DNA of 64,000 nucleotides from Owenia fusiformis (lineage: Eukaryota), in NCBI GenBank assembly GCA_903813345.2, contig CAIIXF020000001.1:8060001-8124000 (forward strand), read 5' to 3'. Position numbers and translations under genes: made by a program. Shown piece by piece: positions 16,441-62,700 of this stretch. The notes beneath the pieces were generated by a model. The model saw only the letters and a program-made list of their open reading frames with translations, was not told the origin of the DNA and made no database searches. Position 1 is the first letter of the stretch, and the number at the start of each line of letters is the position of its first letter.

Positions 16441-18407
16441 ATGGCTGCTGCCTTGACTGGTATGCTGGTTTCAGAGAAAGATATTAAAACGTAAGTATGT
16501 CACTGGGAATTAGGACCTAAACTAAACTACATTGATCGATACTTTTCAGGTTTACGACTCTGCGACACCCTAGAATCCTTTACTTATTACTCTAGATTTC
16601 AGGATGACGGTGTGGTTGTAGTGAGACAGGTGGTATCCCCAGAATGGGTGGACAAACTCCGAGATGCATTCGACTGGGCCATGAACAACCCTTCCCCCTT
16701 AAGTGAAGAGCATGTTGGAGAGGGAGAGCCAGGTAAGACACTTGTTTCTAACACTTTATAACTTTAGTTTTAAGTATAAAGTGGTTCCCATGGATATAGC
16801 CTATAAGCACAAATGCCAAAGGGAAGGGTGACTAAAAACTTTAAAGAATGCAATTTTTGGAATTTTTGGTGGAATGTTTTTGAATTTTGCAACTCCCAGC
16901 ACATCTTTTATATCAAGCCAGGCTACACCCTTATTAATTTGAGATTTTTTGTTTTGAAAGATATATCCCGAGTGCATGTATTGACTCGGGTCGGGTGTAC
17001 ATTCCCTTTCGTTTCAACAACATACAACAACCGTGTTACTTTAAACTATATAAGTTTTCTGAATTATGAATATATTTCAGGAAGATTCTTCGATGACCAG
17101 TTCCTATGGAAACGAAACGACTCGGTCAAGGACTTTGTTTTCAATGGACCATTGGCAAAAGCTGCAGCCACTGTAATGTCATCAGAAAAGGTATTTACAC
17201 GTAATTTATTAAACCCACAGGAGGAGACAAGAAAAATAAACAAGGCATTAACATGCAAAATGTCACCACATGCCACTTGTTACAAACCCCAAACACCCAA
17301 CACCAACCGTCGAACATCGTCCTGATGGTGACTGACAAACACGAATGAACACTAGAATTGTAATATGGTTAGTGTTGCAATTGTCACGTTTACAATAGCA
17401 ACACCTTTGTTTGTTTATGATTTTACTCAGATTGCTCTGAATCATTTCCAGGTGAATGTCTTCTATGATCATGTTCTCGTTAAGGAACCGAACACGAAGA
17501 GAATTACACCGTGGCACAATGACATGTCTTACTGGCCGATAAAGGGTTCTCAGGTTAGTCTCTGCCATCCTTGGCCCAAGAGTAATTCAATGAATTACAT
17601 GAGCTGCTATGAAAGCAGTGAAGGAGCAATCTTGAAGGATGAGTCATTGTTGTCATCCTCCATAGTTTTCGTTATATCAGTTTTTTGGTTTACCTCCTTT
17701 CATAGATTTGCTCCATATGGATAGCTCTAGATGACGTATCTAAAGCAACCAGTGTGAAGTATGTGAAGGGCTCTCACAAACAAAAACTACTCCACAAAGT
17801 TTCCAGTCTAGGAGGGGATAGTAGAAGTTCGTATGGAGATGGAGGTGGTGAACCGTTGCCAGACATTGATGCATTGCATGAAAATGGTGAATTGGAATTG
17901 GTGAATTGGGATTTGAAGCCAGGTAGGCATAAAAGAAAACTATTGGTAAAATTACATATTCAGGCCATCATGAAAAACCAGTATCTCCGAACTTATGATT
18001 ATGAAGCCCAAAGTCATATGACCAAGCTGTTTTTCCCGATTTGAAATATTCGGAATGGTTCCTGGATTTTTGGGCTCTTAAATCCAGATCTCCCGAGGGA
18101 CAAAACGCCATTAAGGCAGGATTCATGCCATGATCTTCCGACTATCTACTTTGTAGTCACTTGTTCTTTTGTTCTTTAAGGTGATGTCTTGATCCATCAT
18201 GGATTTACCATCCATGGTGCACCTGGGAACATCAACTCTACGACAAGACGAAGGGGGTATGTAGTAAGATGGCTTGGAGACGACATGAGGTTCGACCCGA
18301 GACCTGGTACAATGTACAAGGCGTGGACTGAAAAGGGTGGATATCACTTAGGACTTGCAGCAGGGGATACGATGAACTGTGATTTATTTCCCTCTGTAAA
18401 CTTTTAG
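16441..18407 (+). CDS. PhyH-family (phytanoyl-CoA dioxygenase-like) Fe(II)/2-oxoglutarate dioxygenase, 280 aa; exons 16441-16490, 16596-16732, 17081-17190, 17452-17553, 17706-17922, 18181-18407
   Basis: GT-AG joins keep frame (843 nt). Motifs: FQDDGVVVVRQVV, FYDHVLVKEP, TPWHND (HxD), SIWIALDDV, VKGSH, LKPGDVLIHHGFTIHGA (distal His), RRRGY. AATAAA follows the stop. Confidence 0.92.
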
Positions 18408-19678: not shown

Positions 19679-20479
19679 TCAATTCATGAAGAACTTTATA
19701 ATCTGAACGGTAACCCACAAATAATCAGTTTTGTGATGTAAAGTTGTAAGTCCAAAATCAAGCAACTGCTGGGGCACGACGAGATTCTCACTGTCCCACT
19801 TGAACAATGCTTCAAGAACAGCGGGATGGTGGGAGTAGTCAGGGTGACCGCAAAAACATAGAATATGCTTCCCTAAGATGAACCCCTGGTACTGTGTTGA
19901 ACGACTGGAGCCAATGCTACATGCGGCGTCTGGCAACGACACTAAAGCATCGTTATGGTGGTACAGGAGGCTGAATGTGTCGCGCGTCGTCTTAAAGTAC
20001 TCCTTAGCTACGTCAGTTAGGGGAACAGTGACTCTGGAAATCTCGCTGCCTTTTGGATTCTTCTCGACGTGTCCTCCAAGAGCTTTCGCAATTATCTGGT
20101 GTCCGAATGAAATGCCGACCATTTTTCTATTCTCCGATTGAAGCGTTTTTACGAATGTCAACAATGCATCGATCCAGGGGTCTCCGTCATAAACACCACT
20201 GAGTGACCCCGATATGATAAACCCTGCGTAGATGTCCAATTTCTCAGGGTACACTCCCTTCTTGACATCAAACGACTTAATTTTGATTTTCGGCAGCTTC
20301 GTATTCTCGTCACCTGGGCTTTCAGTTTTCAGCGTCTCCAAAGGTAGCGAAGTGACGTAATCAAACATGCTTTGTGCCATATCGGGGTATCCCCCAGAGA
20401 GGAAGTATACTTGTTCTGGAAGATATTCCTTTAAATCCTCACATTGTAGGTAGCCGATGGTGAGCACATTATCATCCAT
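19679..20479 (-). CDS. Class I glutamine amidotransferase-like / gamma-glutamyl peptidase-like protein, intronless CDS, 266 aa
   Basis: Motifs GFIISGS, PWI..L, nucleophile elbow GISFGHQIIAKALGG and GHPD; family consensus is GICFGHQ and GHPE. Confidence 0.9.
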   Translation of the reverse strand: MDDNVLTIGYLQCEDLKEYLPEQVYFLSGGYPDMAQSMFDYVTSLPLETLKTESPGDENTKLPKIKIKSFDVKKGVYPEKLDIYAGFIISGSLSGVYDGDPWIDALLTFVKTLQSENRKMVGISFGHQIIAKALGGHVEKNPKGSEISRVTVPLTDVAKEYFKTTRDTFSLLYHHNDALVSLPDAACSIGSSRSTQYQGFILGKHILCFCGHPDYSHHPAVLEALFKWDSENLVVPQQLLDFGLTTLHHKTDYLWVTVQIIKFFMN

Positions 20480-21617: not shown

Positions 21618-21852
21618 CAGAGTCACCACAAAACCGTTAGCCTCTAGTTTTTGAATACCTTTTTTTCAATTATGAAGAAATCTTCATGAAAGTGTATAGA
21701 ACGTGTTCAATCTATAAATTGATTTGAACTTAGTTGTCTAAAAACATAGATGCAATATCTCAATTATCTCCATTGGACACTATCTACAGAAAAAGCCAAA
21801 GATTCCATCATATTTGACAAAGTTAGAGAATAACATTTTTGTGGTCACCCTG
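21618..21852. mobile_element. Short Tc1/mariner-type MITE
   Basis: ta|cagagtcaccacaaaa ... ttttgtggtcaccctg|ta. Confidence 0.65.
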
Positions 21853-22455: not shown

Positions 22456-25436
22456 CTAAAATTCTTTATTTTGAAGCCGTGTGGTATCTTTATTTATTGG
22501 TTGTTGTTGTTTCACATTTTCTGTCATCTTTGGTACAGCAGGTTCGACAGCATTGTTGTATGTTATGAGTATGTGGCTGTGTGAGATAGGGAGTCGATTC
22601 TCTCGACTGTTCGATATCCCATAAGTAATGTAGATAACTAATCCTGAAACCAAATGTTTAGTACATCATTTTTGAGAAACTACTATATTTGGATATATTT
22701 GGATATTTATACTAATTAAAAAAATCAATGCGGGGAACGCTGGATGACTATAAACATCAATAAAAATTGATTCGTAATCGTAAACATATTCGACGTCAGC
22801 CGACTGTGTGTAGAAGGGTCAACTGCAATATCAGGCTATAAGTGTTTTAATTGAAAATCAAGCAATCGAACCCACAATTTAATCTTCATCAACATGAATT
22901 TTTTTTTGATTCGTTCTATTGTCTATTACATTACATTGTGATGTGGATAATTTCACCACTAGCCTGATAAGGGTTTAATGGTACCTAAAGCACTAAATGT
23001 CAATAATAGACAATCGATGGTCACTGTCTTACCAATTGTCCCCCATATTCCAAGTCTTATCCATGCCACTGGTGGCATTTGTACCACCAACAAAATGTTG
23101 ATCAACATACTCAGTGACTCAAGCCACGGAGATAGAGGTACCTAAAAGAAAATATACACATATACAGGTTGGACAAAATAGGATTGTATAACATGGGGTC
23201 AATGGAAAAAACACGGAATAAACGTACACGATCAACAGGAGGGTGTTAGTATTGTGTTCGGATACACACGCTTGATTGTGGAGGAGAGGTGTGAAGTGTA
23301 GAATGAGGGTTGGATATAGGGTAATAAGAGCTTAAAGCAAGACTACAGGGCAATTTATAATATGTAATTTATAGAAAAATGCACTTACTACAAATGTTTT
23401 GAAGCTTGTGTTTTTCTCGTGAGCAGCAACAGTCAATAAGCATAAGATTATTCCCGAGACGAAGAAAATTAGAAATCCGACACTCCACCAATATCCTGCC
23501 AAGATTTCACGACTGAAGTAAACGACCATAACAGAAAAGCCTGCCATGAGTGCTGCCATTAAACCAACAGCTAAAGCTGAAAAATTATGTTGATTTTATA
23601 TTTCACAAGGCATTGACATGCAAAATGTCACCGCCTACCATTTGTTACTGACGCCGAACTCCCACCGCCGTTCGCCAGAACGCCGAACACCGTCCACAAA
23701 AATGTTGGAAACTTCTAGTATAACAATATCTCACCACTTGAAGTGGTTACATAACGTTGATTTGTACATTTAAAACCTAATTTCATAAACGCTGCTAAGT
23801 TCTGTAATAATTATATCGTCCTTAAAGTGGACATCGCAATGACAACATGTAGATATATAGAAATCCGGAAAACAGATACAAACCGATTAAACAGTTCTCA
23901 TTTTTTGACATTCCAGATATAAGTATAAACGACTGACGTACACATGGCAGACAATGGGATTATAACATTCTGCAAAATTTGACTATGACAAATTGTGAAA
24001 TTGAGCAATATTCACTTACAAACAGCATGGCCAGGTTCACAGTCCATGAGAATTGTGAATGGCCATCCATCAAGACCTCGTTTAACTCTTCCTATTCCAG
24101 ATATAGGATCTGTTATAACGATCCTCTTCTTTTCATCTGGATCCTCGTCATTTGGATCTTCTAGTGTCATCTTCACGGTCATCTTCTCTAAGGGAATGTA
24201 CCTTGCAACTATTGTGTTTGCTGCTACAAGCGTGAAGACAATAAGTGTTCCGAGAGAGAGTAAATTTGCCAAAAGTTCGATATCAAATATAAACGCTAGT
24301 ATTGCAGCTATTGTCCCAAATGTTGCAGTGGCCACGATAGGAGTCTGCATCTTAGGATGTGTCGTAGAGAGGAATCGAAAAAGTAATCCATCCGATGCCA
24401 TGGCATATGTTAACCTAGCTATACCGTACATTCTTCCAATTAAAGCATTCATCATGCTGACCAAAGAAATTGGCGCCAAGATCCACATCATCCACGAGAT
24501 TCCGCGGGTAATCATTGCGTTCACAAACGGTGATCTTCTGTCGATCATTTCATAAGGCAATATTAAGGTTAGAGCTGTAGATGCTAATGTATGTACAATT
24601 ACAACAACCGCCATGCTAATAAATGTAGCTTTTGGTAAATTTATATGTGGATCAATGGTTTCTTCTGTTGCAGTCGCCATATTATAAAAGCCACCGTATA
24701 ACACAAACAGCATTCCGGCTCCTGATAAAACTCCATGAAATCCAAAAGGAAGGAATCCACCATTGTCCTCGTTTACCCAATGTTTCCCTTCGGAGAAAGT
24801 TAAGAAAAATCCTATAACAAATACTAGAGCCAAAATGTTGAACCCGACAAAGAAATTATTAAGTAGTTTGAACGATACATTGACAACAAGGCACGCCACG
24901 AGAGAGGCAATGATGACTGACACAATAGCAAGGAAATCAGGATAATTCGCTAACCAAGGCATATTAACAACTCCAATGTTCTTTTGAATACCAGTAGCTA
25001 TTGCACCGCTAGATATAGTGTTAAATGTAGCACTCCAGCCCTTAGCTATAGCTGCTACGGCCAGCAAGTGTTCCATGATCATTACCCAGCCGACCATGAA
25101 TGCCCAAAGCTCCCCATTCATAACATAAGTATATGTATATGCAGCACCAGCACTAGGGAATCTGGATCCCAATTCGGCATAACAAATCGCCGACAGTAGA
25201 GCGGCGAATCCAGCTAATAAATATGCCAGTACGGCCCCGGGTCCAGCAACTTGTGATATGACGACACCAGTCACTGCGTACAGACCTCCACCAACAGAAT
25301 TTCCTATGCCCATAAACGACAAATCCCAAACATCGAGGCATCGTTTTAATGGCGTAATATCATCAGTTGCAAGTTTAGTTCTATTAAGTTTTTCACACAG
25401 TGCTCTGGTGCAGACTTTTGATTTAGGTTTCTCCAT
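22456..25436 (-). CDS. SLC7 cationic amino acid transporter-like (CAT/APC family) paralogue A, 633 aa; exons 25436-24020, 23576-23389, 23141-23033, 22643-22456
   Basis: Motifs LKRCL...GIG, AGP, CYAELGSRFP.AG.AYTY, GGFLPFG, MASDGLLF, and C-terminal VPL.PW...S.LIN / YGI.NS. GT-AG joins keep frame (1902 nt). Confidence 0.93.
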
Positions 25437-30519: not shown

Positions 30520-32257
30520 ATTGTATTTATATCTGTACATAAAATTTTGACCAGAGGTCATGCAATCATATGATAAGTGGTTTCGTCAAACCGTTAAAAC
30601 TGCCTTTTTGGCAAAAGATATGTTGTCCTTAGAAAACATAAAAAAGCCTCGCCACAGTGAACATCTTTTGATTGCCAATGATCCCATACTGGATCTGAAC
30701 GGCTGAGGTTGTCCACGCAAAAGGATGGGGTGGCCAGTGACCGATGACTGTAGTTTCCGTATCATTCAAACACTTCTGTTACTGAGTTTCTTTTTCTGAT
30801 CAAGTTTTTTATTAATCTTCCGATTCATTTATCATTTTAATCCATATCGTATGTAATGAAATTTCAAGTTTTACCAGTTAACAATTGTATTGAACTTGTT
30901 GAACAAAGAATGGTAACCAGCATTCCTCTTTTGACACATAACAAAATTAAACATAAGGGTTTGTGTGGACTTACCAATGTCTGTATTGTATTTACAATTG
31001 CGTGTAAAACTAGGTAAAAAGTAGAAAATGAATTTTATTTTGAAATAGACTATTTTATTTAACGTGTTCACAGAAAATGTATTGAAAATATATCAATTGC
31101 AAGACATTATAGAAACATGTACTTGCATAGGTTAGTTTCAATCAATCGCTCTATTTACACAACACACATGATGAATAAATTCAGGTGAGTAACCATTGCG
31201 ATGATTGTCGTTTCCGTTTCATTCACAAAATTATCCAAGCTGGCAGAAAAGCTTACGTACGCTTTTTGAATTTGCTCTCTGTTGATTGGTCAGTTGAATG
31301 GTCATTATCTTTGTGCTTATTTTGGAATACGTAATTTAGCATTGAATTATACACTAGGGTTCGATTTTGAACACAACGTTTCAGCTGTATTTGACATTCT
31401 TCTTCGCGTATATTTCCCGGTATATTTGCACAATCGAAAAATGTCCTTTTGACAAATTGCAAACATTTTCATGAATATCTTTCTAAACTGACGATTATCA
31501 TGAAATGCATAACCGTAACATCACTTCCTAGTCTTCATTCCCGGAAGTCGAGACCCGATGTGAATGTGAAACAAGAAGCAAGTTCTCAGGTATTAACATG
31601 GGTTGAATTCTATGTTTAATATATTGAATATATGAATTCTATGTTTAATATATATGACTTGCATGAATTGTAAGCGTTGGAACTTGCTATTAGTATGAAC
31701 AATATGCAGAAACATGGTTTTAAGATTGGGAGATTGTTTTTTTGGTATAAAACGACGGTACGGACCAATGGAAATTTGTCCTACTTGACGCGATGCTTGT
31801 GGGACATATTCATGGAAATGACCATTTCGCGCGTCGGATTGAATGCAATTGAATGTTGCATGCGTATTTCAAAATTGAATGCTTCATTTCAGTTGCGACA
31901 ATCAAAAATAAAAGGTAAATTCCATATAGAGTGATTCCCCAAATATTCGTTTGAAGTTCCAACAATTTGAGATATAGGTGGTTTATAATTTAGGCTACTA
32001 TATACGATCCCAATTGGCCAAGAGAAAAACAAAAATCAATTCCACCATCTTGGAATATTTTGCTGGGATATTACGATAACTATAGTAACTGTAACGGTTA
32101 TTCCCCAATCACTGTATATACTAAACCTACAATAAGCAGTTGTATTTTAATATTGAAAAGACGTCGATCAGGTACAAGGAAATACATGAGCAATATTTAG
32201 TGAATGCAAACGGATTTATATCTCTTGATCGGATTTAACAACAAACATAGAGAAAAC

Positions 32258-35200
32258 ATGTCAATGAAAAACTGCCTGAACGAGAATGTGCCAAAGTTGG
32301 TCAAGAAGCTGACCCGAACCAAAACGCTCGATAGTGACGCAATGGACACACCATTAAAACGATCTCTTGGAACATTGGATATCTCTCTAATTGGCATTGG
32401 GTCAATGGTCGGGTCGGGTATATTTGTCATGTCGGGGACCGTGGTAAAAAATATTGCTGGACCTGCTGCTGTGGTGTCTTTCCTCATAGCCGGTCTTGCT
32501 GCTGTTCTGGCAGCCTTCTGTTATGCTGAATTTGCCTCTCGTGTCTCCAAGACTGGCAGTGCATACACGTATACCTATATTATCATAGGAGAGCTCATGG
32601 CCTTCATTATAGGTTGGGATGTACTATTAGAACTTACCATATCATTGGCTGCCCTGGGTAGGGCATTCAGTGGAACACTTGATTCATTATTTGCTGATGC
32701 AATAAAGAACGGGACGCAGAATGCAATTGGAAAGATGCAACTTGACTGGCTAAGTTACACCCCCGATTTTGTAGCAGCTCTTGTCGTTTTGATTATAACG
32801 GCTGTTGTTGCATTGGGAACCAGTATTTCCACCAAATATAATAAGATATTTTGTTCAGTGAATATACTATGCTTAATCGCTATATTTGGCGTTGCTTTCT
32901 ATTTTGCTGATTTCGACAACTGGGAGAATAAGGAACATGGTGGGTTTTTGCCGTACGGTGTGTCTGGTGTCATATCAGGCGCATCTGTATTCTTTTACTC
33001 ATATGTTGGTTTTGAGCAATTGGCATCGGCCGCAGAGGAGGCTATAGACCCTGCCAAGTCCATGCCTAGAGCATGTTGTATTGCAGTAGCAACAGCTATA
33101 ACACTCTACTGTGTAGGAGGATCTGCTTTGACGTTAATGTTGCCTTTTTACGAAGTGGACCCATCAAGAGCATTTTCAAGTGCTTTTGATACAAAAGGAC
33201 TTCCATGGCTAGAAAAAGTTATTGCAGTAGTAATATTGATGTTCATAAGTGTAACGTTACTCAATTCTTGCTATGGTTTATCACGCAACGTGTATGCTAT
33301 GGCCTCCGACGGACTTCTGTTTAAATTTCTTGCCAAGGTTAACCATAGAACGCAGACTCCTATTTTTGCTATTGCTGTGTTTGGTATTTTATCGTCTGTA
33401 TTGGCCCTTCTATTTGATATACAGTCGTTGGCAGAGCTGGTGTCAATTGGGAGCTTACAAGCATACATTTTTGTCGCAATAAGCATAATAATCATTCGGT
33501 ATCAACCAATGAATAAATGTCAATTTGAATTAAAACAAGAAGACAAAAGCATAGACGGCGAATCCAAACAAATATCTGCACTCGAATCAACACAATTACT
33601 AAGACTCAAGAAACTAGAGGACAGAGGTAATATTGGTCAACTGAAAGAACGTTGGAAAGGATTGTACATTTTAAAAAACACGGAGCCTGGCAAGGCTGTA
33701 TTGTGTTCAACCATTCTAATGAGTGTCTCCATGTTGAGCGTCAGTGCATTGGTTTTACTAGGAACTGAGTATCTTAGAACAGTACAATGGTGGGCTGTGA
33801 TGCTATTGGTGATATTTACGACCCTTATTGTCGTCTGCTACTTGATTATCATAGTCCATGAACAAAACACCAGGTTTCTCACATATCAGGTAACATTTCT
33901 ATTTAAGGTGCCATGGTAGTTAACAGGACTTCTGTTTTGAGTTCTAGTTAACTAGTTCCAGGATCACAATGTACATGGTCAGAATGACCCTAAACATGAT
34001 GAAATAACTTTTTCAGCCCTCTGAAAATGTGACTGAAAAATAGATAAAAGTAGGAGCTTAGGAAAGGTCACTGAACAGAATATTTTGATTATTTCAGAAA
34101 ATGTGCCCAATATATTGCTCTAGATGATCCAACTTTTGAAAATTTGATATCATTCGTAGAAAAAGAGAAAAAATGAAAAACTGAATTGAAAAGCGATCTA
34201 TTTTCCTTTTTATGACGCCATTTTTGTTTCAGACAATTTTCTAAAATTTCAAAGATTGTATCATTAAACCTTATATAAAACCTTATATAAAATAAACTAT
34301 GCTCCAAATCAATATCGAAATTTTGAACATAGCGACTCTGAGTTTTATGGATCGTGGCCTTTTGAAAATGTTGATAGGTTCTTGGCCTTTTTAGCTCACA
34401 TGGTGAGCTTTTGCAATCACTCACTTGTCCGTCTGTCTGTCCGTCCGTCCGTCCGTCCGTCTGTCCGTCCGTCAACAATAGTGGCACGTTTTAAAACCTC
34501 TGTCGATAGGATTCCTGTTTTAAGTTATTTCTGTTCAACATCAATACAGAAAACCCCCCTATGACTCCTGGTTCAAAAGCTCGCCTATTTTCAAAATGGC
34601 CGTCACTTTTGTCTCGCGAAATTCACTTTTAGCCCATTTCCTAGCTAACCTCTGTCGATAGGATTCCTGTTTAAATTTATTTCTGTTCAACACCAATACA
34701 GAAAACCCCCCTATGACTCCTGGTTCAAAAGCTCGCCTATTTTCAAAATGGCCGTCACTTTTGTCTCGCGGAATTCACTTTTGGCCCATTTCCTAGCTTT
34801 ACAAATAATTTCAGGTGTCCTACATTGTAAAAATCCATGTCAATGTAAAGATTAGATATATGAAATAATTTTGTTACAAAAAATCAGGGAAAAATTGTAT
34901 CCATTTTTTTATTTTCAGCCATTTTAGTTAACATTGATTTGTCTATCTGACTCGCGAAATCCACTTTCTGTCAATAACAGTGGCACGTTTTAAAACCTCT
35001 GTCGATAGGATTCCTGTTTTAAGTTATTTCTGTTCAACATGAATTCAGAAAACTCCCCTATGACTCCTGGTTCAAAAGCTCGCCTATTTTCAAAATGGCC
35101 GCCATTTTTGTCTCGCGAAATTCACTTTTGACCGATTTCCTAGCTTTACAAATAATTTCAAGTGTCCTACATTGTAGAAATCCATTACAAAGTAAAGAAT

Positions 35201-41231: not shown

Positions 41232-41497
41232 TATACTGCCTGTTTCTATCATGTTATGTTCAAAACGAGAGTAATTTGAGAAACTACGTTAAGTTTGGTA
41301 GTATTTGCTTCTCTATGGAGTTGCCGTTTTTCTAGAATTATATTGCATAAGTTATTTGCTTTCTGTTAGGCTATGTGTTCTGTGTATGTAATGGCTTAAC
41401 CTGAAGAATCGGGGAACTAGTTTAAATATGTGTAGTATATGCTGCATACAAACTGGTTCTTGATAAATAGAGAAGTGTGAATATTATAAATAACAAA

Positions 41498-42508
41498 ATG
41501 TTAGCTTCAAAAGTATACTTCGTATTTTGCTCTGTCTTTGTTATTTCAATAGTGGCGTTTTTTGTACTTATGGCAGATAGAAAACTGATTAATGAACCTA
41601 GCATTTTTAGAAGAGAAAAGGCAAGGAAGCTGAATGAATTGGAATTAAATGTATTAAACTCTGGATTCAAGAAACATACAGTCGAGGAGAGGATGACACC
41701 ATTTAAAATCTACTCAGAAGCAAACAGAAAACTTGTGTTTTACAACAGAATGCCCAAATGTGGCTCACGCACTATGTTAACTTTATTTCAAAAAAGGAAT
41801 CATGTTTTTGAATTGACAGAAACAGATATATTCGATGAACGTCAATTGAATGAAAAAGAACTTTATGAATATGTACATTCATTCAAAAAATCATCAAAGA
41901 AACAGTTAAGAGAACGTCATCTTCATTTTGTTAATTTTGAAAGGTATGGTTTGAAGCAGCCAATTTATATCAACTTAATTAGAGAACCATTTGAGCAGGC
42001 TCTTTCGAGGTATTATTACCACTTTGAGAGAGGATTAGTTAAGAAACAATTAAAAGGGAGAAAAATCCAAACGTTTGAAGAATGTGTTGTGAACAATTTG
42101 AATAGCTCTCTACCAATTAAAGGATGCGTTTTCTCTTCAAGAGAATATGTGCTTTGGTTTTGTGGACATGATGAAGCATGTTCCTATATGGATTATGGAC
42201 TAGCAAAGGCCAAACGAAACATCGAGAAATATTACATGCTGATTGGCCTAACTGAGGAGTATGCTGAAACTTTACAAGCTTTAGAACTTATGCTACCATC
42301 TTACTTCAAGGGCATGGGTAAGATCGACACCAATGCTACGAAGAAACACAAAATACCATCTTCAAAAAAGATAAGACCATCTGAAAAAATAATCCAACTT
42401 ATCAAAATACGATTGGGATACAACTACGAAATATACAATTTTGTGAAACAAAAGTTCCACATCACATTGAAGAGCTTGGGGATATATTATACCAAAAATT
42501 CAATTTGA
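41498..42508 (+). CDS. Heparan sulfate 2-O-/uronyl 2-sulfotransferase-like Golgi sulfotransferase, single coding exon, 336 aa
   Basis: N-terminal type II TM anchor; 5'-PSB YNRMPKCGSRT; HLHFVNF; 3'-PB YINLIREP...SRYYY; WFCGHD..C; AKRNIE.YY.LIGLTEE. First ATG at 41498 (the ORF track uses GTG at 41477). Confidence 0.92.
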   Translation: MLASKVYFVFCSVFVISIVAFFVLMADRKLINEPSIFRREKARKLNELELNVLNSGFKKHTVEERMTPFKIYSEANRKLVFYNRMPKCGSRTMLTLFQKRNHVFELTETDIFDERQLNEKELYEYVHSFKKSSKKQLRERHLHFVNFERYGLKQPIYINLIREPFEQALSRYYYHFERGLVKKQLKGRKIQTFEECVVNNLNSSLPIKGCVFSSREYVLWFCGHDEACSYMDYGLAKAKRNIEKYYMLIGLTEEYAETLQALELMLPSYFKGMGKIDTNATKKHKIPSSKKIRPSEKIIQLIKIRLGYNYEIYNFVKQKFHITLKSLGIYYTKNSI

Positions 42509-59700: not shown

Positions 59701-62700
59701 TTGTCTGCTAATCTGTTTTATCAAAGTAGCATGCATTGGGAAGTAGTTTTCTCAAGAGCATTAGGGTTGAGTTATTGAATTATTGCAGTTCCGTACGCAG
59801 TTTAGTGAGATATTCGCTCCAGAAGACAGCCTCAAGTCCCTACTGGCGCCGCTACCCCCTCAATAACGAAATTAATTATGCCAGCTTACAGAACTGGCAG
59901 GAGTCGTAAATGCATTTTGCCATCAAAAAACAAGATTTACTTGTCGGATATAAAAATAGGATGTCTTATATTGATTCGATTTTGATGAGAACCTTCTAGC
60001 TGTAAACACGATACACGTATCCCATAAACAAACTGAGAAACGAGCAACCATGATGCAACTTAGAACTATTTGTTTCCACAAGCCATGGGAATATAGGTAC
60101 ATCAGGGGAATAATAAACAATTCAAAGAGCAATAGATAATGCTGATCCATCGTACTCAATCGTTAATTTAGATAAAATATTCAGTTGTCCTGCAACTTGT
60201 GTTTTGATACTTGTGTTATCATTAACTGTTGAACACAAATGGTTTTTAAATATTGAAGTTTGTGTGTTCCAATGTTGGCTCTTGTTGAATCAGATTTGAA
60301 ACGCGATGTACCAACAGAAGACTACATTGCTGCCAGTTCAGTAAAGTGGTATAAAATAGCATTAGTTTAGTAAAGGTGTGTGTTTGACAGTCTGTCATCA
60401 TTCCTAGCATACCTGACCATATCTCCCGGATGTTGAGATGAATCGCGCATTCAATGTAATGCAAATATCTAATAACGTACTCATAAAACGAATCATTGGA
60501 GCCATGTATAACAATTAATATGCCATATATTGCAATGACTGGTCGCCTGTGGCGAGTGTATCATCGTAAACAAAAGGTTTAATCATTCAATGATTATCAC
60601 CATTAATGACAAAACTATACATTATTAATTATTTTGTTTGATATTACAGTTGGATATTACATATTAAGTGTTTTGGTTGATATTACCTCTTAAATGTTAA
60701 AATATTTTGCTCTTCTAAATATCATTTTTTCTGGTTGACGATCGCTCCTTAGTGTATTTAAAAATAAAAATGTCAGTTTTTGGTTGATCCTACCTTTTTA
60801 ATGAAAATTATAAAATATTGTGCTTTAAGATTTAGATTAAGTTTTAGGTGTGATGGTTTTGTATAGTATCATGCAAATATTTTACTTTTCTATGTATCAA
60901 GTATTGGGTGGATTATATCTCTTTATTGTCTTTAAAAATGCTCTCTTTATGTTAAGAAGTTGGTTGACGCTATACCTCTTTAGTCTATATTATAAACTAT
61001 TTTGCTCTTCTAGGTTTCAAGTATTTTGGTTGATGATACCTTTTAGGGTGTTATAAAAATAATTATAGCTATTATTGTTTCCTTTCTTGTTGGTAACAGT
61101 TAGTGGGTGGTATAATGCATGTACATGTAAAATGCTTTGAAAACGATACACAACAATCCCATTACTCTTGTCAGCTGAAAAAGAACATGACAGTGAGAGA
61201 TATAGGGACACAAGTGAGACTAATTCATAAGCAAACATTATACATACTCAGATGTAGGTCTGGCAATGTGAGTTGGTCGTATTTAATATTGTCACCTTTC
61301 AGTAGTTTTATGTCAAACATCACAATTAATTTGTACTCTTTAAAAGTTCGTTGTTAAATGTGATGCTATGATGCCCGAAACAAGTACATATGGTTCTTAC
61401 AACATTACAAGTATACCGATAACATAACAAGTATGGTAAATATAAAATGATTATTACAAGTATGGTTATGGATGGTGCCCGTAGTAAGTATGGCAATATA
61501 AGATACCCATGTATTGCAATATGTGATGCCTGTAACAAATATTGTAATGTATGATGCCTGTAACAAGTATGCTACTATGTAATGCTATAAATAATGTAAA
61601 AAAATGGTAATATGTGATGGCTGTACAAGAATGGTAATATATGATGCGTAACACGTATGGTAATATATGATGCGTGTGACAAATGTTGTAATGTATGATG
61701 CCTGTAACAAGTATGCTACTATATAATGCTATAAATAATGTAAAAAGAATGGTAATATGTGATGGCTGTATGGTAATATATGATGCGTAACACGTATGGT
61801 AATATATGATGCGTGTGACAAATGTTGTAATGTATGATGCCTGTAACAAGTATGCTACTATATAATGCAATAAATGATGTAAAAAGAATGGTAATATTTG
61901 ATGGCTGTACAAGAATGGTAATAAATAATGCGTAACACGTATGGTAATATATGATGCGTAACACGTATGGTAATATATGATGCATGTAACAAGTATGGTA
62001 ATATATGATGCCTGTAACAAGTATGCTATTATATAATGCTATATAATGTAAAAAGAATGGTCATATGTGATGACTGTACAAGTATGGTAACATATGATAC
62101 CTGTAACAAGTGTGGTAATATATGATACCTGTAACAAGTGTGGTGATATATGATACCTGTAACAAGTGTGGTAATATATGATACCTGTAACAAGTGTGGT
62201 AATATATGACACCTGTAACAAGTGTGGTAATATATATTACCTGTAACAAGTGTGGTAATATATGATACCTGTAACAAGTGTGGTAATATATTATACCTGT
62301 AACAAGTATGCTACTATATAATGCTATAAATAGTATAAAGAGAATGGTAATATATATGATGCCTGTAACAAGTCAGCTAGCTCAGAATGAATGTCTATAA
62401 TTTTATATTTCTTGATTTTCATTCCAAGACCAAGATAATAAAGTCAGGTAGCAAAGAAAAATGTCTGTGTGCCAGGTTATTAACAATTGACTTAGAGAGC
62501 AATATTTTGGTATTACGTTTGTTTTCTACTTAAGCTAAGTAATAATTTTTCAATTTATGATGTTAAAATATACCGTAAATTAGAAAAGATATTAGCACTG
62601 CTCTTGGGTAGATGACAATTTTATGAACCCCTTGTTTCTTAGCCAGGTAAGCACGAAACGCGATGGCCGATGGGGAAAGCATAGAACTAATAAAACACAT

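Follow-up and report, generated by a model that had tools for sequence, protein, structure and literature searches.

A gene in a 64,000-nucleotide stretch of the genome of the annelid Owenia fusiformis (contig CAIIXF020000001.1; the whole stretch is termed the window) encodes a protein with the class I glutamine amidotransferase (GATase) fold, in which Ser and Asp occupy the positions of the catalytic Cys and Glu. The window protein is a stand-alone class I GATase-fold protein that most resembles the gamma-glutamyl peptidases GGP1 from plants and ChyE from fungi. It belongs to a clade of Ser-containing relatives that, judged from sequence comparison, looks like an undescribed enzyme variant of the known GATase family rather than a broken gene. 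The gene and its functional segments are as follows.

19679..20479, minus strand: complete GATase-like coding sequence, single exon, 266 amino acids plus stop, ATG start (list of open reading frames (ORFs), Pfam, colinearity with homologues).
20204..20209, minus strand: G91-S92, the oxyanion position equivalent to S68 of GGP1 (GGP1 alignment).
20096..20116, minus strand: nucleophile elbow G122-I-S124-F-G-H-Q128 (reverse-complement read, ggc att tca ttc gga cac cag, and GGP1 alignment).
19946..19963, minus strand: clade signature Y173-H174-H175-N176-D177-A178, on the strand adjoining the nucleophile (sequence read and GGP1 alignment).
19829..19852, minus strand: loop C210-G-H212-P-D214-Y-S-H217 (sequence read, ggt cac cct gac for G-H-P-D, and alignment with GGP1 H192/E194).

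The ATG is the first start codon past the upstream stop. The protein is colinear with its homologues from the first Met through the C-terminus in an alignment of 17 sequences, in which G91 and S92 are invariant. A first-pass annotation, made from the nucleotide sequence, had described a Ser-bearing GISFGHQ elbow with its TCA codon at 20110-20108, two substitutions away from the Cys codons, within an intact 266-amino acid ORF. The codon and its position were confirmed by the reverse-complement read, and the distance to TGT or TGC is indeed two substitutions. The frame is intact, and the match to PF00117 together with homologues to E 1.5e-66 shows that it did not arise by chance. The GHPD motif placed at 19846-19838 in that annotation is also present; this interval covers H-P-D only, with His212 at 19846-19844, Asp214 at 19840-19838 and the preceding Gly at 19849-19847, all on the minus strand.

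Residues 82-226 match the Pfam class I GATase family PF00117 with an E value of 1.3e-10 and a score of 41.7 bits, against a cutoff of 22.8. No second domain, such as the ammonia-receiving synthase domain with which class I GATases can work, is detected by Pfam in the 266-residue ORF at E up to 1, where UPF0231 is the sole other match and falls below threshold; for a partner subunit, the gene neighborhood says little in an animal genome. The best matches in NCBIfam are to two families of bacterial stand-alone amidotransferases, PRK05665 (E 7.8e-28, 97.8 bits against a curated cutoff of 309) and PRK09065 (E 3.4e-25, 89 bits against 205), and the protein falls below the membership cutoff of both. 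The closest solved relative by sequence is Arabidopsis GGP1 (PDB 9k7i, E 4.9e-23 with HMMER). An AlphaFold2 model built from a 19-sequence alignment has a mean predicted local distance difference test score (pLDDT) of 93.6 and a predicted template modelling score (pTM) of 0.92. In this model, Ser124 is located at the junction of the strand formed by residues 120-124 and the helix formed by residues 125-133, which is the nucleophile elbow. When the model was compared with the PDB using Foldseek, the GGP1 chains ranked first (E 1.8e-19, template modelling (TM) score 0.79 relative to the query and 0.85 relative to the target), ahead of other stand-alone GATases. The matching GATase chains are many, and all have a probability of 1.00.

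The residues of the window protein were mapped onto GGP1 from the printed HMMER alignment, corrected for a ten-residue chain offset. The equivalent positions are given below, with the window residue first.

Ser124: Cys100 of GGP1.
Phe125: Phe101 of GGP1.
Gln128: Gln104 of GGP1.
Ser92: Ser68 of GGP1.
Ser94: His70 of GGP1.
His174: Cys154 of GGP1.
His175: His155 of GGP1.
Asn176: Gln156 of GGP1.
Asp177: Asp157 of GGP1.
His212: His192 of GGP1.
Asp214: Glu194 of GGP1.

The accessible part of the GGP1 study gives the catalytic triad as C100/H192/E194 and states that Cys-His-Glu is completely conserved in the family (PMC12958103). The HMMER alignment with 9k7i pairs GICFGHQ with GISFGHQ and GHPEY with GHPDY, and thus the proposal of the first-pass annotation that Ser and Asp stand at catalytic positions holds. 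The Cys expected of a class I GATase is absent, with Ser124 aligned to Cys100 of GGP1; His212 of the H-P-E pair is present, and the acid is Asp214. The Cys-His-Glu triad of MEROPS family C26 is likewise replaced in the window protein by Ser, His and Asp at the three triad positions.

Part of the surroundings of the active site is shared with GGP1. Both are stand-alone single-domain proteins with the same G-I-x-F-G-H-Q elbow context, H-x-D strand motif and G-H-P-x-Y loop. The oxyanion positions S68 and F101 of GGP1 correspond to S92 and F125, and Q104 corresponds to Q128; S92, F125 and Q128 thus retain the S1-side residues. According to the accessible text on GGP1, the main-chain amide of S68 contributes to the oxyanion hole and its carbonyl contacts the alpha-amino group of Glu, F101 is the main-chain oxyanion residue, and the alpha-carboxylate of Glu is held by Q104 and the main chain of Q156/D157 (PMC12958103). 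The same source gives the S1 subsite for gamma-Glu as S68, H70, Q104 and the main chain of Q156/D157. At these positions S92, Q128 and D177 are conserved in the window protein, and H70 and Q156 are replaced by Ser94 and Asn176; most of these contacts are made by the main chain, on which sequence cannot judge.

The differences from GGP1 extend beyond Cys/Glu against Ser/Asp. C154, Q156 and Q190 of GGP1 are His, Asn and Cys in the window protein, and the identity is about 24% over the structural alignment. In the GGP1 study, as far as its text is accessible, C154 lies on the neighboring strand near the P1' side chain and can form a disulfide with C100, by which Cys100 is inactivated; the pocket for the substituent of glutathione conjugates is formed by C154, Q156 and Y212, and R206 recognizes the P2' Gly (PMC12958103). 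His174 and Asn176 therefore occupy two of the three positions that form the S1'-side pocket of GGP1.

ChyE is a class I GATase that functions as a gamma-glutamyl tripeptide hydrolase in chrysogine biosynthesis, as described in the accessible part of PMC9622831. The fungal enzyme ftChyE has the same stand-alone GATase fold and hydrolyzes a glutamyl amide bond instead of donating ammonia. It differs in having an intact triad, Cys102-His189-Glu191; ChyE was likened to the window protein by description (PMC9622831). The amidotransferases of PRK05665 and PRK09065 are similar to the window protein in length and architecture, and bacterial relatives carry G-I-C-F-G-H-Q-I-I-A-x-A-L-G-G. They differ at the triad, since all 11 of the bacterial-type matches that were read have Cys together with HPEF.

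The Ser residue is shared by all close relatives of the window protein. A word-indexed search yielded 788 candidates, of which 29 had E values up to 0.001; the best homologue has an E value of 1.5e-66. The first 17 of these 29 matches, the window's own included, are 42-50% identical to the window protein. Ser124 is present in 17 of 17 aligned close relatives and Asp214 in 16 of 17, with Glu in P0012. The named members are the liverworts Riccia sorocarpa, R. fluitans and Calypogeia fissa, the mosses Ceratodon purpureus and Sphagnum magellanicum, the lycophytes Selaginella moellendorffii and Diphasiastrum complanatum, and the streptophyte alga Chlorokybus (a eukprot record). Eleven of the remaining 12 matches were read, and each of these bacterial-type proteins has C-F-G-H-Q and H-P-E-F. 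The first-pass annotation had named retention of Cys and Glu in close orthologues as evidence that would count against its proposal; what was found is Ser in every close relative and Asp in nearly all of them.

An exhaustive search of 1.84 billion cluster representatives returned 4300 proteins at E up to 0.001, 10 of them at E up to 1e-30. For the triad comparison, 175 proteins were aligned and the three triad columns were read, with the following result.

Cys/His/Glu: 151 of 175.
Ser/His/Asp: 16 of 175.
Ser/His/Glu: 4 of 175 (P0012, P0031, P0032 and P0051).
Ser, with the sequence truncated or diverging ahead of the His: 1 of 175 (P0030).
Other triad states: 3 of 175 (P0041, P0057 and P0073).

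The Cys-His-Glu triad is thus the family norm, as the first-pass annotation had stated. A search with a profile of the Ser-type proteins added just fragments of the P0051 type, namely P0178, P0180 and P0182, which have the Ser elbow, and P0176, which has HHND and HHPEY. In total, 24 proteins were found in which the nucleophile residue is neither Cys nor Ala, and the residue is Ser in all 24 (21 tabulated proteins and 3 fragments). One of the Ser-type proteins, P0031, is 831 residues long and contains three tandem Ser-type domains (GIS[YF]GHQ, NHHGD, EGH[ML]EYS) joined by linkers, an architecture not seen in other relatives.

When 185,579 prokaryotic species genomes were scanned with the elbow and HHNDA motifs of the clade, 45 pattern matches were obtained and none encodes a relative; the strict patterns could miss a looser bacterial form. 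A tblastn search gave distant matches to plasmids (74 records) and to one phage record. Identities are 26-34% in the eight plasmid rows that were listed and 29% for the phage, and all 74 plasmid records are below 60%. No seed-plant or fern proteins appear among the Ser-type relatives in these general searches, which did not include a dedicated proteome search; the angiosperm GGPs are of the Cys type. This distribution suggests that the Ser-type gene was lost in euphyllophytes.

The replacement of the nucleophile is accompanied by a wider remodelling of the active site. The 18 core Ser-type members were compared column by column with the 151 Cys-type proteins. The columns below reach 90% fixation or more within the Ser clade, with residues that are rare in the Cys type; the residue of the window protein is followed by the state in the Cys type.

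Ser124: Cys in 151 of 151.
Cys210: Gln in 151 of 151.
His174: Ser, Met, Trp or Val.
Asn176: Gln in 107 of 151.
Ala178: Gln in 102 of 151.
Ser145: Trp in 134 of 151.
Ser148: Gly in 131 of 151.
Thr195: Cys in 118 of 150.
Tyr215: Phe in 123 of 151.
Asp229: Arg in 98 of 147.

S124, Q128, H174, H175, N176 and D177 do not vary in any of 19 sequences when the deep members P0032 and P0051 are counted in. On this alignment, the substituted active-site positions are fixed and not drifting. Cys210 was considered as an alternative nucleophile and rejected, since Chlorokybus, P0032 and P0051 have Ser or Ala there.

The window protein follows the constraint seen in the rest of the clade. Among the other 17 core members, to which its overall identity is only 40-50%, 51 columns are invariant and 77 are conserved at 90% or more; the window protein matches 46 and 70 of these, respectively. 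These retained columns, together with the intact colinear frame, argue for purifying selection on the Owenia copy and for a functional, maintained gene. It is extremely improbable that the gene is instead a decaying, neutrally evolving relic of a Cys-type gamma-glutamyl peptidase. The window protein is the most divergent member of the clade, with changes in 5 of the 51 otherwise invariant columns, as such a relic might be. The 266-codon frame is nonetheless unbroken and colinear with the homologues, the other 46 columns are kept, and the Ser/Asp state is fixed across mosses, liverworts, lycophytes and Chlorokybus. Neutral evolution, which the first-pass annotation had also listed as evidence against its proposal, is not what these columns record, and its argument that the substitutions are not simple decay is supported by the Ser clade as well.

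The history of the nucleophile and acid changes was reconstructed from an IQ-TREE tree of 48 rows. The Ser type is represented by 19 single-domain proteins and by P0031, from which two domain slices were taken; the other 27 rows are non-Ser relatives, selected largely by rank from approximately 150. The tree is unrooted and omits the fragment P0017, the multi-domain proteins P0034, P0035 and P0037, and the remaining Cys-type representatives. A starred branch with support of 97/89 has all 21 Ser rows on the same side, which indicates a single change between Cys and Ser. The 19 single-domain Ser rows form a clade (95/83, starred). Within it, the 17 rows of the Ser/Asp type form a clade (93/86) that includes the window protein and whose sister is the Ser/Glu pair P0032 and P0051 (95/83, starred). 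Two nucleophile changes are counted on the tree, one between Cys and Ser and one from Cys to Ala in P0057. The acid is counted as changing twice, from Glu to Asp and, in P0012, back again. This unrooted tree suggests that the replacement of Cys by Ser preceded that of Glu by Asp.

The window protein shows every feature by which the Ser-type clade was delimited: G-[IF]-S-F-[GA]-x-Q, H-H-N-D, H-P-[DE]-Y and a place within the monophyletic group. The co-occurrence of Ser and Asp as a conserved clade, raised by the first-pass annotation, is correct in part. Ser is monophyletic and Asp accompanies it in 16 of 17 close relatives; deeper relatives combine Ser with Glu, and the pairing is not obligatory. 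The broader interpretation in that annotation is modified in the same way: the Ser/Asp pair is merely one part of a wider fixed remodelling that includes His174, Asn176, Ala178, Cys210 and Ser145. Its suggestion that the paired change recreates a serine-hydrolase-type triad with altered chemistry is an inference.

Family S51 shares the GATase-like fold (MEROPS clan PC) and would be a known case of Ser acting as nucleophile on this scaffold. A serine peptidase member of S51 (dipeptidase E/PepE) with the triad S134-H170-D198 is described in the accessible part of PMC11078827. The window protein has the same Ser-His-acid type of triad and differs in that the Peptidase_S51 profile of Pfam does not match it at E up to 1. 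Because the protein is a PF00117 member by sequence and has no S51 match, its Ser would have arisen independently within a Cys-type family. No description of a Ser-type class I GATase was found in the literature, in a search that left most subscription journals and supplements outside its reach, and the novelty of the clade is provisional.

We regard it as an even proposition that the window protein is an active serine-type amidase or acyl-enzyme former that acts on a gamma-glutamyl- or glutamine-like substrate. The proposed route begins with a single Cys to Ser change at the nucleophile, followed in the core clade by the change of the triad Glu to Asp. The S1'-side residues would have been replaced along with the triad change and then frozen, with position 154 becoming His, Q156 Asn and Q158 Ala (GGP1 numbering), Cys taking the place of the Gln that precedes the catalytic His by two residues, and a Trp giving way to Ser. 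In the resulting enzyme, Ser124 on the G-x-S-x-G elbow would be activated by the His212-Asp214 pair, and the oxyanion hole would be formed by the main chain of S92 and F125. Ser124 would attack a carbonyl, amide or ester, in a substrate of the glutamine-like or gamma-glutamyl-like kind; the retained Gln128 may still read the alpha-carboxylate of that substrate, and an acyl-serine intermediate would result. The leaving group or acceptor would probably be something other than a glutathione conjugate, given an S1' pocket rebuilt around His174 and Asn176. Catalysis is favored by the stand-alone relatives GGP1 and ChyE, which are real gamma-glutamyl amide hydrolases according to the accessible parts of PMC12958103 and PMC9622831.

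Several observations weigh against an active enzyme. The C100S variant of GGP1 is reported, in the accessible text, to be folded yet without detectable activity (<1%; PMC12958103). Ser alone is therefore insufficient on this scaffold, and any catalysis by the window protein must depend on the accompanying changes. The pairing of Ser with Asp has no statistical weight as co-evolution because it represents one or two evolutionary events. The conserved triad-like constellation would suit a ligand-binding pseudoenzyme, too. Such a conserved pseudoenzyme, less likely than the active enzyme and yet an alternative to be taken seriously, would bind a glutamine or gamma-glutamyl ligand without turnover and serve as a sensor, a regulator or a partner subunit. 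The inactive C100S variant favors it, the retention of S92, F125 and Q128 would preserve binding, and pseudo-GATases are a known category with viral examples (PMC7605207, in its accessible part). The viral vGAT proteins described there also have no catalytic Cys; they were set beside the window protein by description.

The pattern of conservation in the Ser clade is harder to reconcile with binding alone. Unlike the pseudo-GATases, the clade keeps the His and the acid, and its replacement nucleophile is invariant: Ser is found in 24 of 24 members and His wherever the region is aligned. The acid is Asp or Glu in 20 of the 21 tabulated Ser-type proteins, P0030 diverging ahead of this position; among the fragments, P0176 has Glu and the other three end before it. 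A role in ligand binding alone offers no easy explanation for the change of Glu to Asp or for the new fixed His beside the nucleophile.

The gene was most likely acquired horizontally, as an intron-less copy whose donor was a eukaryote of the green lineage or some other microbial one, judging from its relatives and composition. All named members of the Ser clade are non-seed streptophytes, the gene has no introns, and its GC content at third codon positions (GC3) is an outlier. The GC content of the gene is 0.454 and its GC3 is 0.521, against GC3 values of 0.392, 0.358 and 0.328 for three neighboring ORFs; the correlation of relative synonymous codon usage is 0.34. The word-indexed, exhaustive and profile searches returned Ser-type relatives from no other named animal. 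The window as a whole is AT-rich, with a GC content of 0.32-0.38 in 4-kb windows and 0.35 overall, and contains few long ORFs. The other features are listed below.

17365-18407, plus strand: three short ORFs, likely exons of one gene, convergent with the GATase-like gene; the first matches PhyH at E 0.015 with 16 bits against a cutoff of 22.
24012-25436, minus strand: cationic amino-acid transporter ORF, single exon (Pfam AA_permease_2, E 8.7e-32).
32204-33919, plus strand: cationic amino-acid transporter ORF of 571 amino acids, single exon (Pfam AA_permease_2, E 2e-47).
34089-34487 and 61466-62020, minus strand: repeat-peptide ORFs (TDGQTDGR..., YITI.VT...) from the ORF list, probably tandem DNA repeats and not genes.
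41477-42508, plus strand: sulfotransferase ORF of 343 amino acids, single exon, with an N-terminal hydrophobic stretch (weak match to Sulfotransfer_2, E 5.6e-06, 27.1 bits).

The second and third ORFs of the set at 17365-18407 have no profile matches. The 571-residue transporter ORF is 99% identical to a 651-residue Owenia fusiformis protein, and its other relatives are animal transporters. Transporter paralogues with identities of 52% and 38% are located on the same contig, which looks like a local family expansion. The Atlas clusters nearest to the sulfotransferase ORF are animal heparan-sulfate and uronyl 2-O-sulfotransferases.

Three points count against horizontal transfer. The nearest group in the tree, P0009/P0010/P0016, points to no named donor. 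The window protein groups with these three proteins (97/82, starred), and the group is sister to the streptophyte clade (95/88, starred). Forcing the window protein into the land plants (11 rows) is 11.4 log-likelihood units worse, with p 0.026 in the approximately unbiased (AU) test; this marginal result is weak, since the question was posed and the group chosen after the tree had been seen. The GC3 comparison, in turn, rests on three neighboring ORFs.

Vertical inheritance of an ancient eukaryotic gene that has disappeared from seed plants and from nearly all animals is unlikely on balance. The position of the window protein outside the land plants would agree with it, as would the long end branch of 0.89 and the location of the gene between ordinary animal genes. 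It is opposed by the lack of any other named animal relative, though the same database yields many animal relatives of the transporter, by the absence of introns, and by the GC3 of 0.52 and codon usage that set the gene apart from its neighbors (0.33-0.39). The plant identity of all named relatives and the same codon composition could also point to an artefact of assembly or contamination, in which the gene would come from an alga or other eukaryote in the sample. This is very improbable: the gene is situated 1.3 kb from one ORF set and 3.5 kb from a transporter ORF, within 64 kb of AT-rich DNA with animal-type genes; the flanks have no break in composition at 4-kb resolution, and the gene sits in a 62-Mb contig.

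The sequence around the gene was also inspected for copies and insertion marks. In the 64-kb window, tblastn identifies the gene only, with no second copy or pseudogene and all other matches at E of at least 0.95. A 17-nucleotide inverted match at 21836-21852 to the stretch that encodes GHPD was taken as chance (blastn E 0.52, no surrounding similarity in any frame). The flanking repeats, one 33-nucleotide direct pair with 76% identity (19462, 21087) and short inverted pairs, are unconvincing as marks of insertion. No poly-A tract follows the stop codon, and Rfam provided 0 matches at gathering scores in the whole window.

A more far-reaching reading joins the biochemical and the genomic arguments and is speculative and rather unlikely. 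The Ser clade would consist of true serine hydrolases or acyltransferases and form a family not yet described, born inside the Cys-amidotransferases through the nucleophile swap, the change of Glu to Asp and the arrival of His174, and acting on a substrate other than glutamine or glutathione conjugates. The annelid would have obtained the gene by horizontal transfer, from a eukaryote of the green lineage or another microbial one, and with it a metabolic step that is missing from other animals.

The apparent absence of the gene from seed plants and its presence in a single named animal raise questions on gene loss and on transfer from eukaryotes to animals. If the Ser-type proteins are active, automatic annotation mislabels a new family of serine hydrolases as 'glutamine amidotransferase', and Ser-type enzymes would resist oxidation, unlike GGP1 with its Cys100 disulfide. 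Engineered Cys-to-Ser variants of glutamine amidotransferases and of GGP1 are dead, as stated in the accessible parts of the sources. Because Ser has been kept across liverworts, mosses, lycophytes, a basal streptophyte alga and an annelid while such engineered mutants are dead, this lineage is a natural experiment on what else must change. The candidate enabling changes are the substitution of Asp for Glu, the new His beside the nucleophile, the replacement of Gln by Cys two residues before the catalytic His, and the replacement of Gln by Asn.

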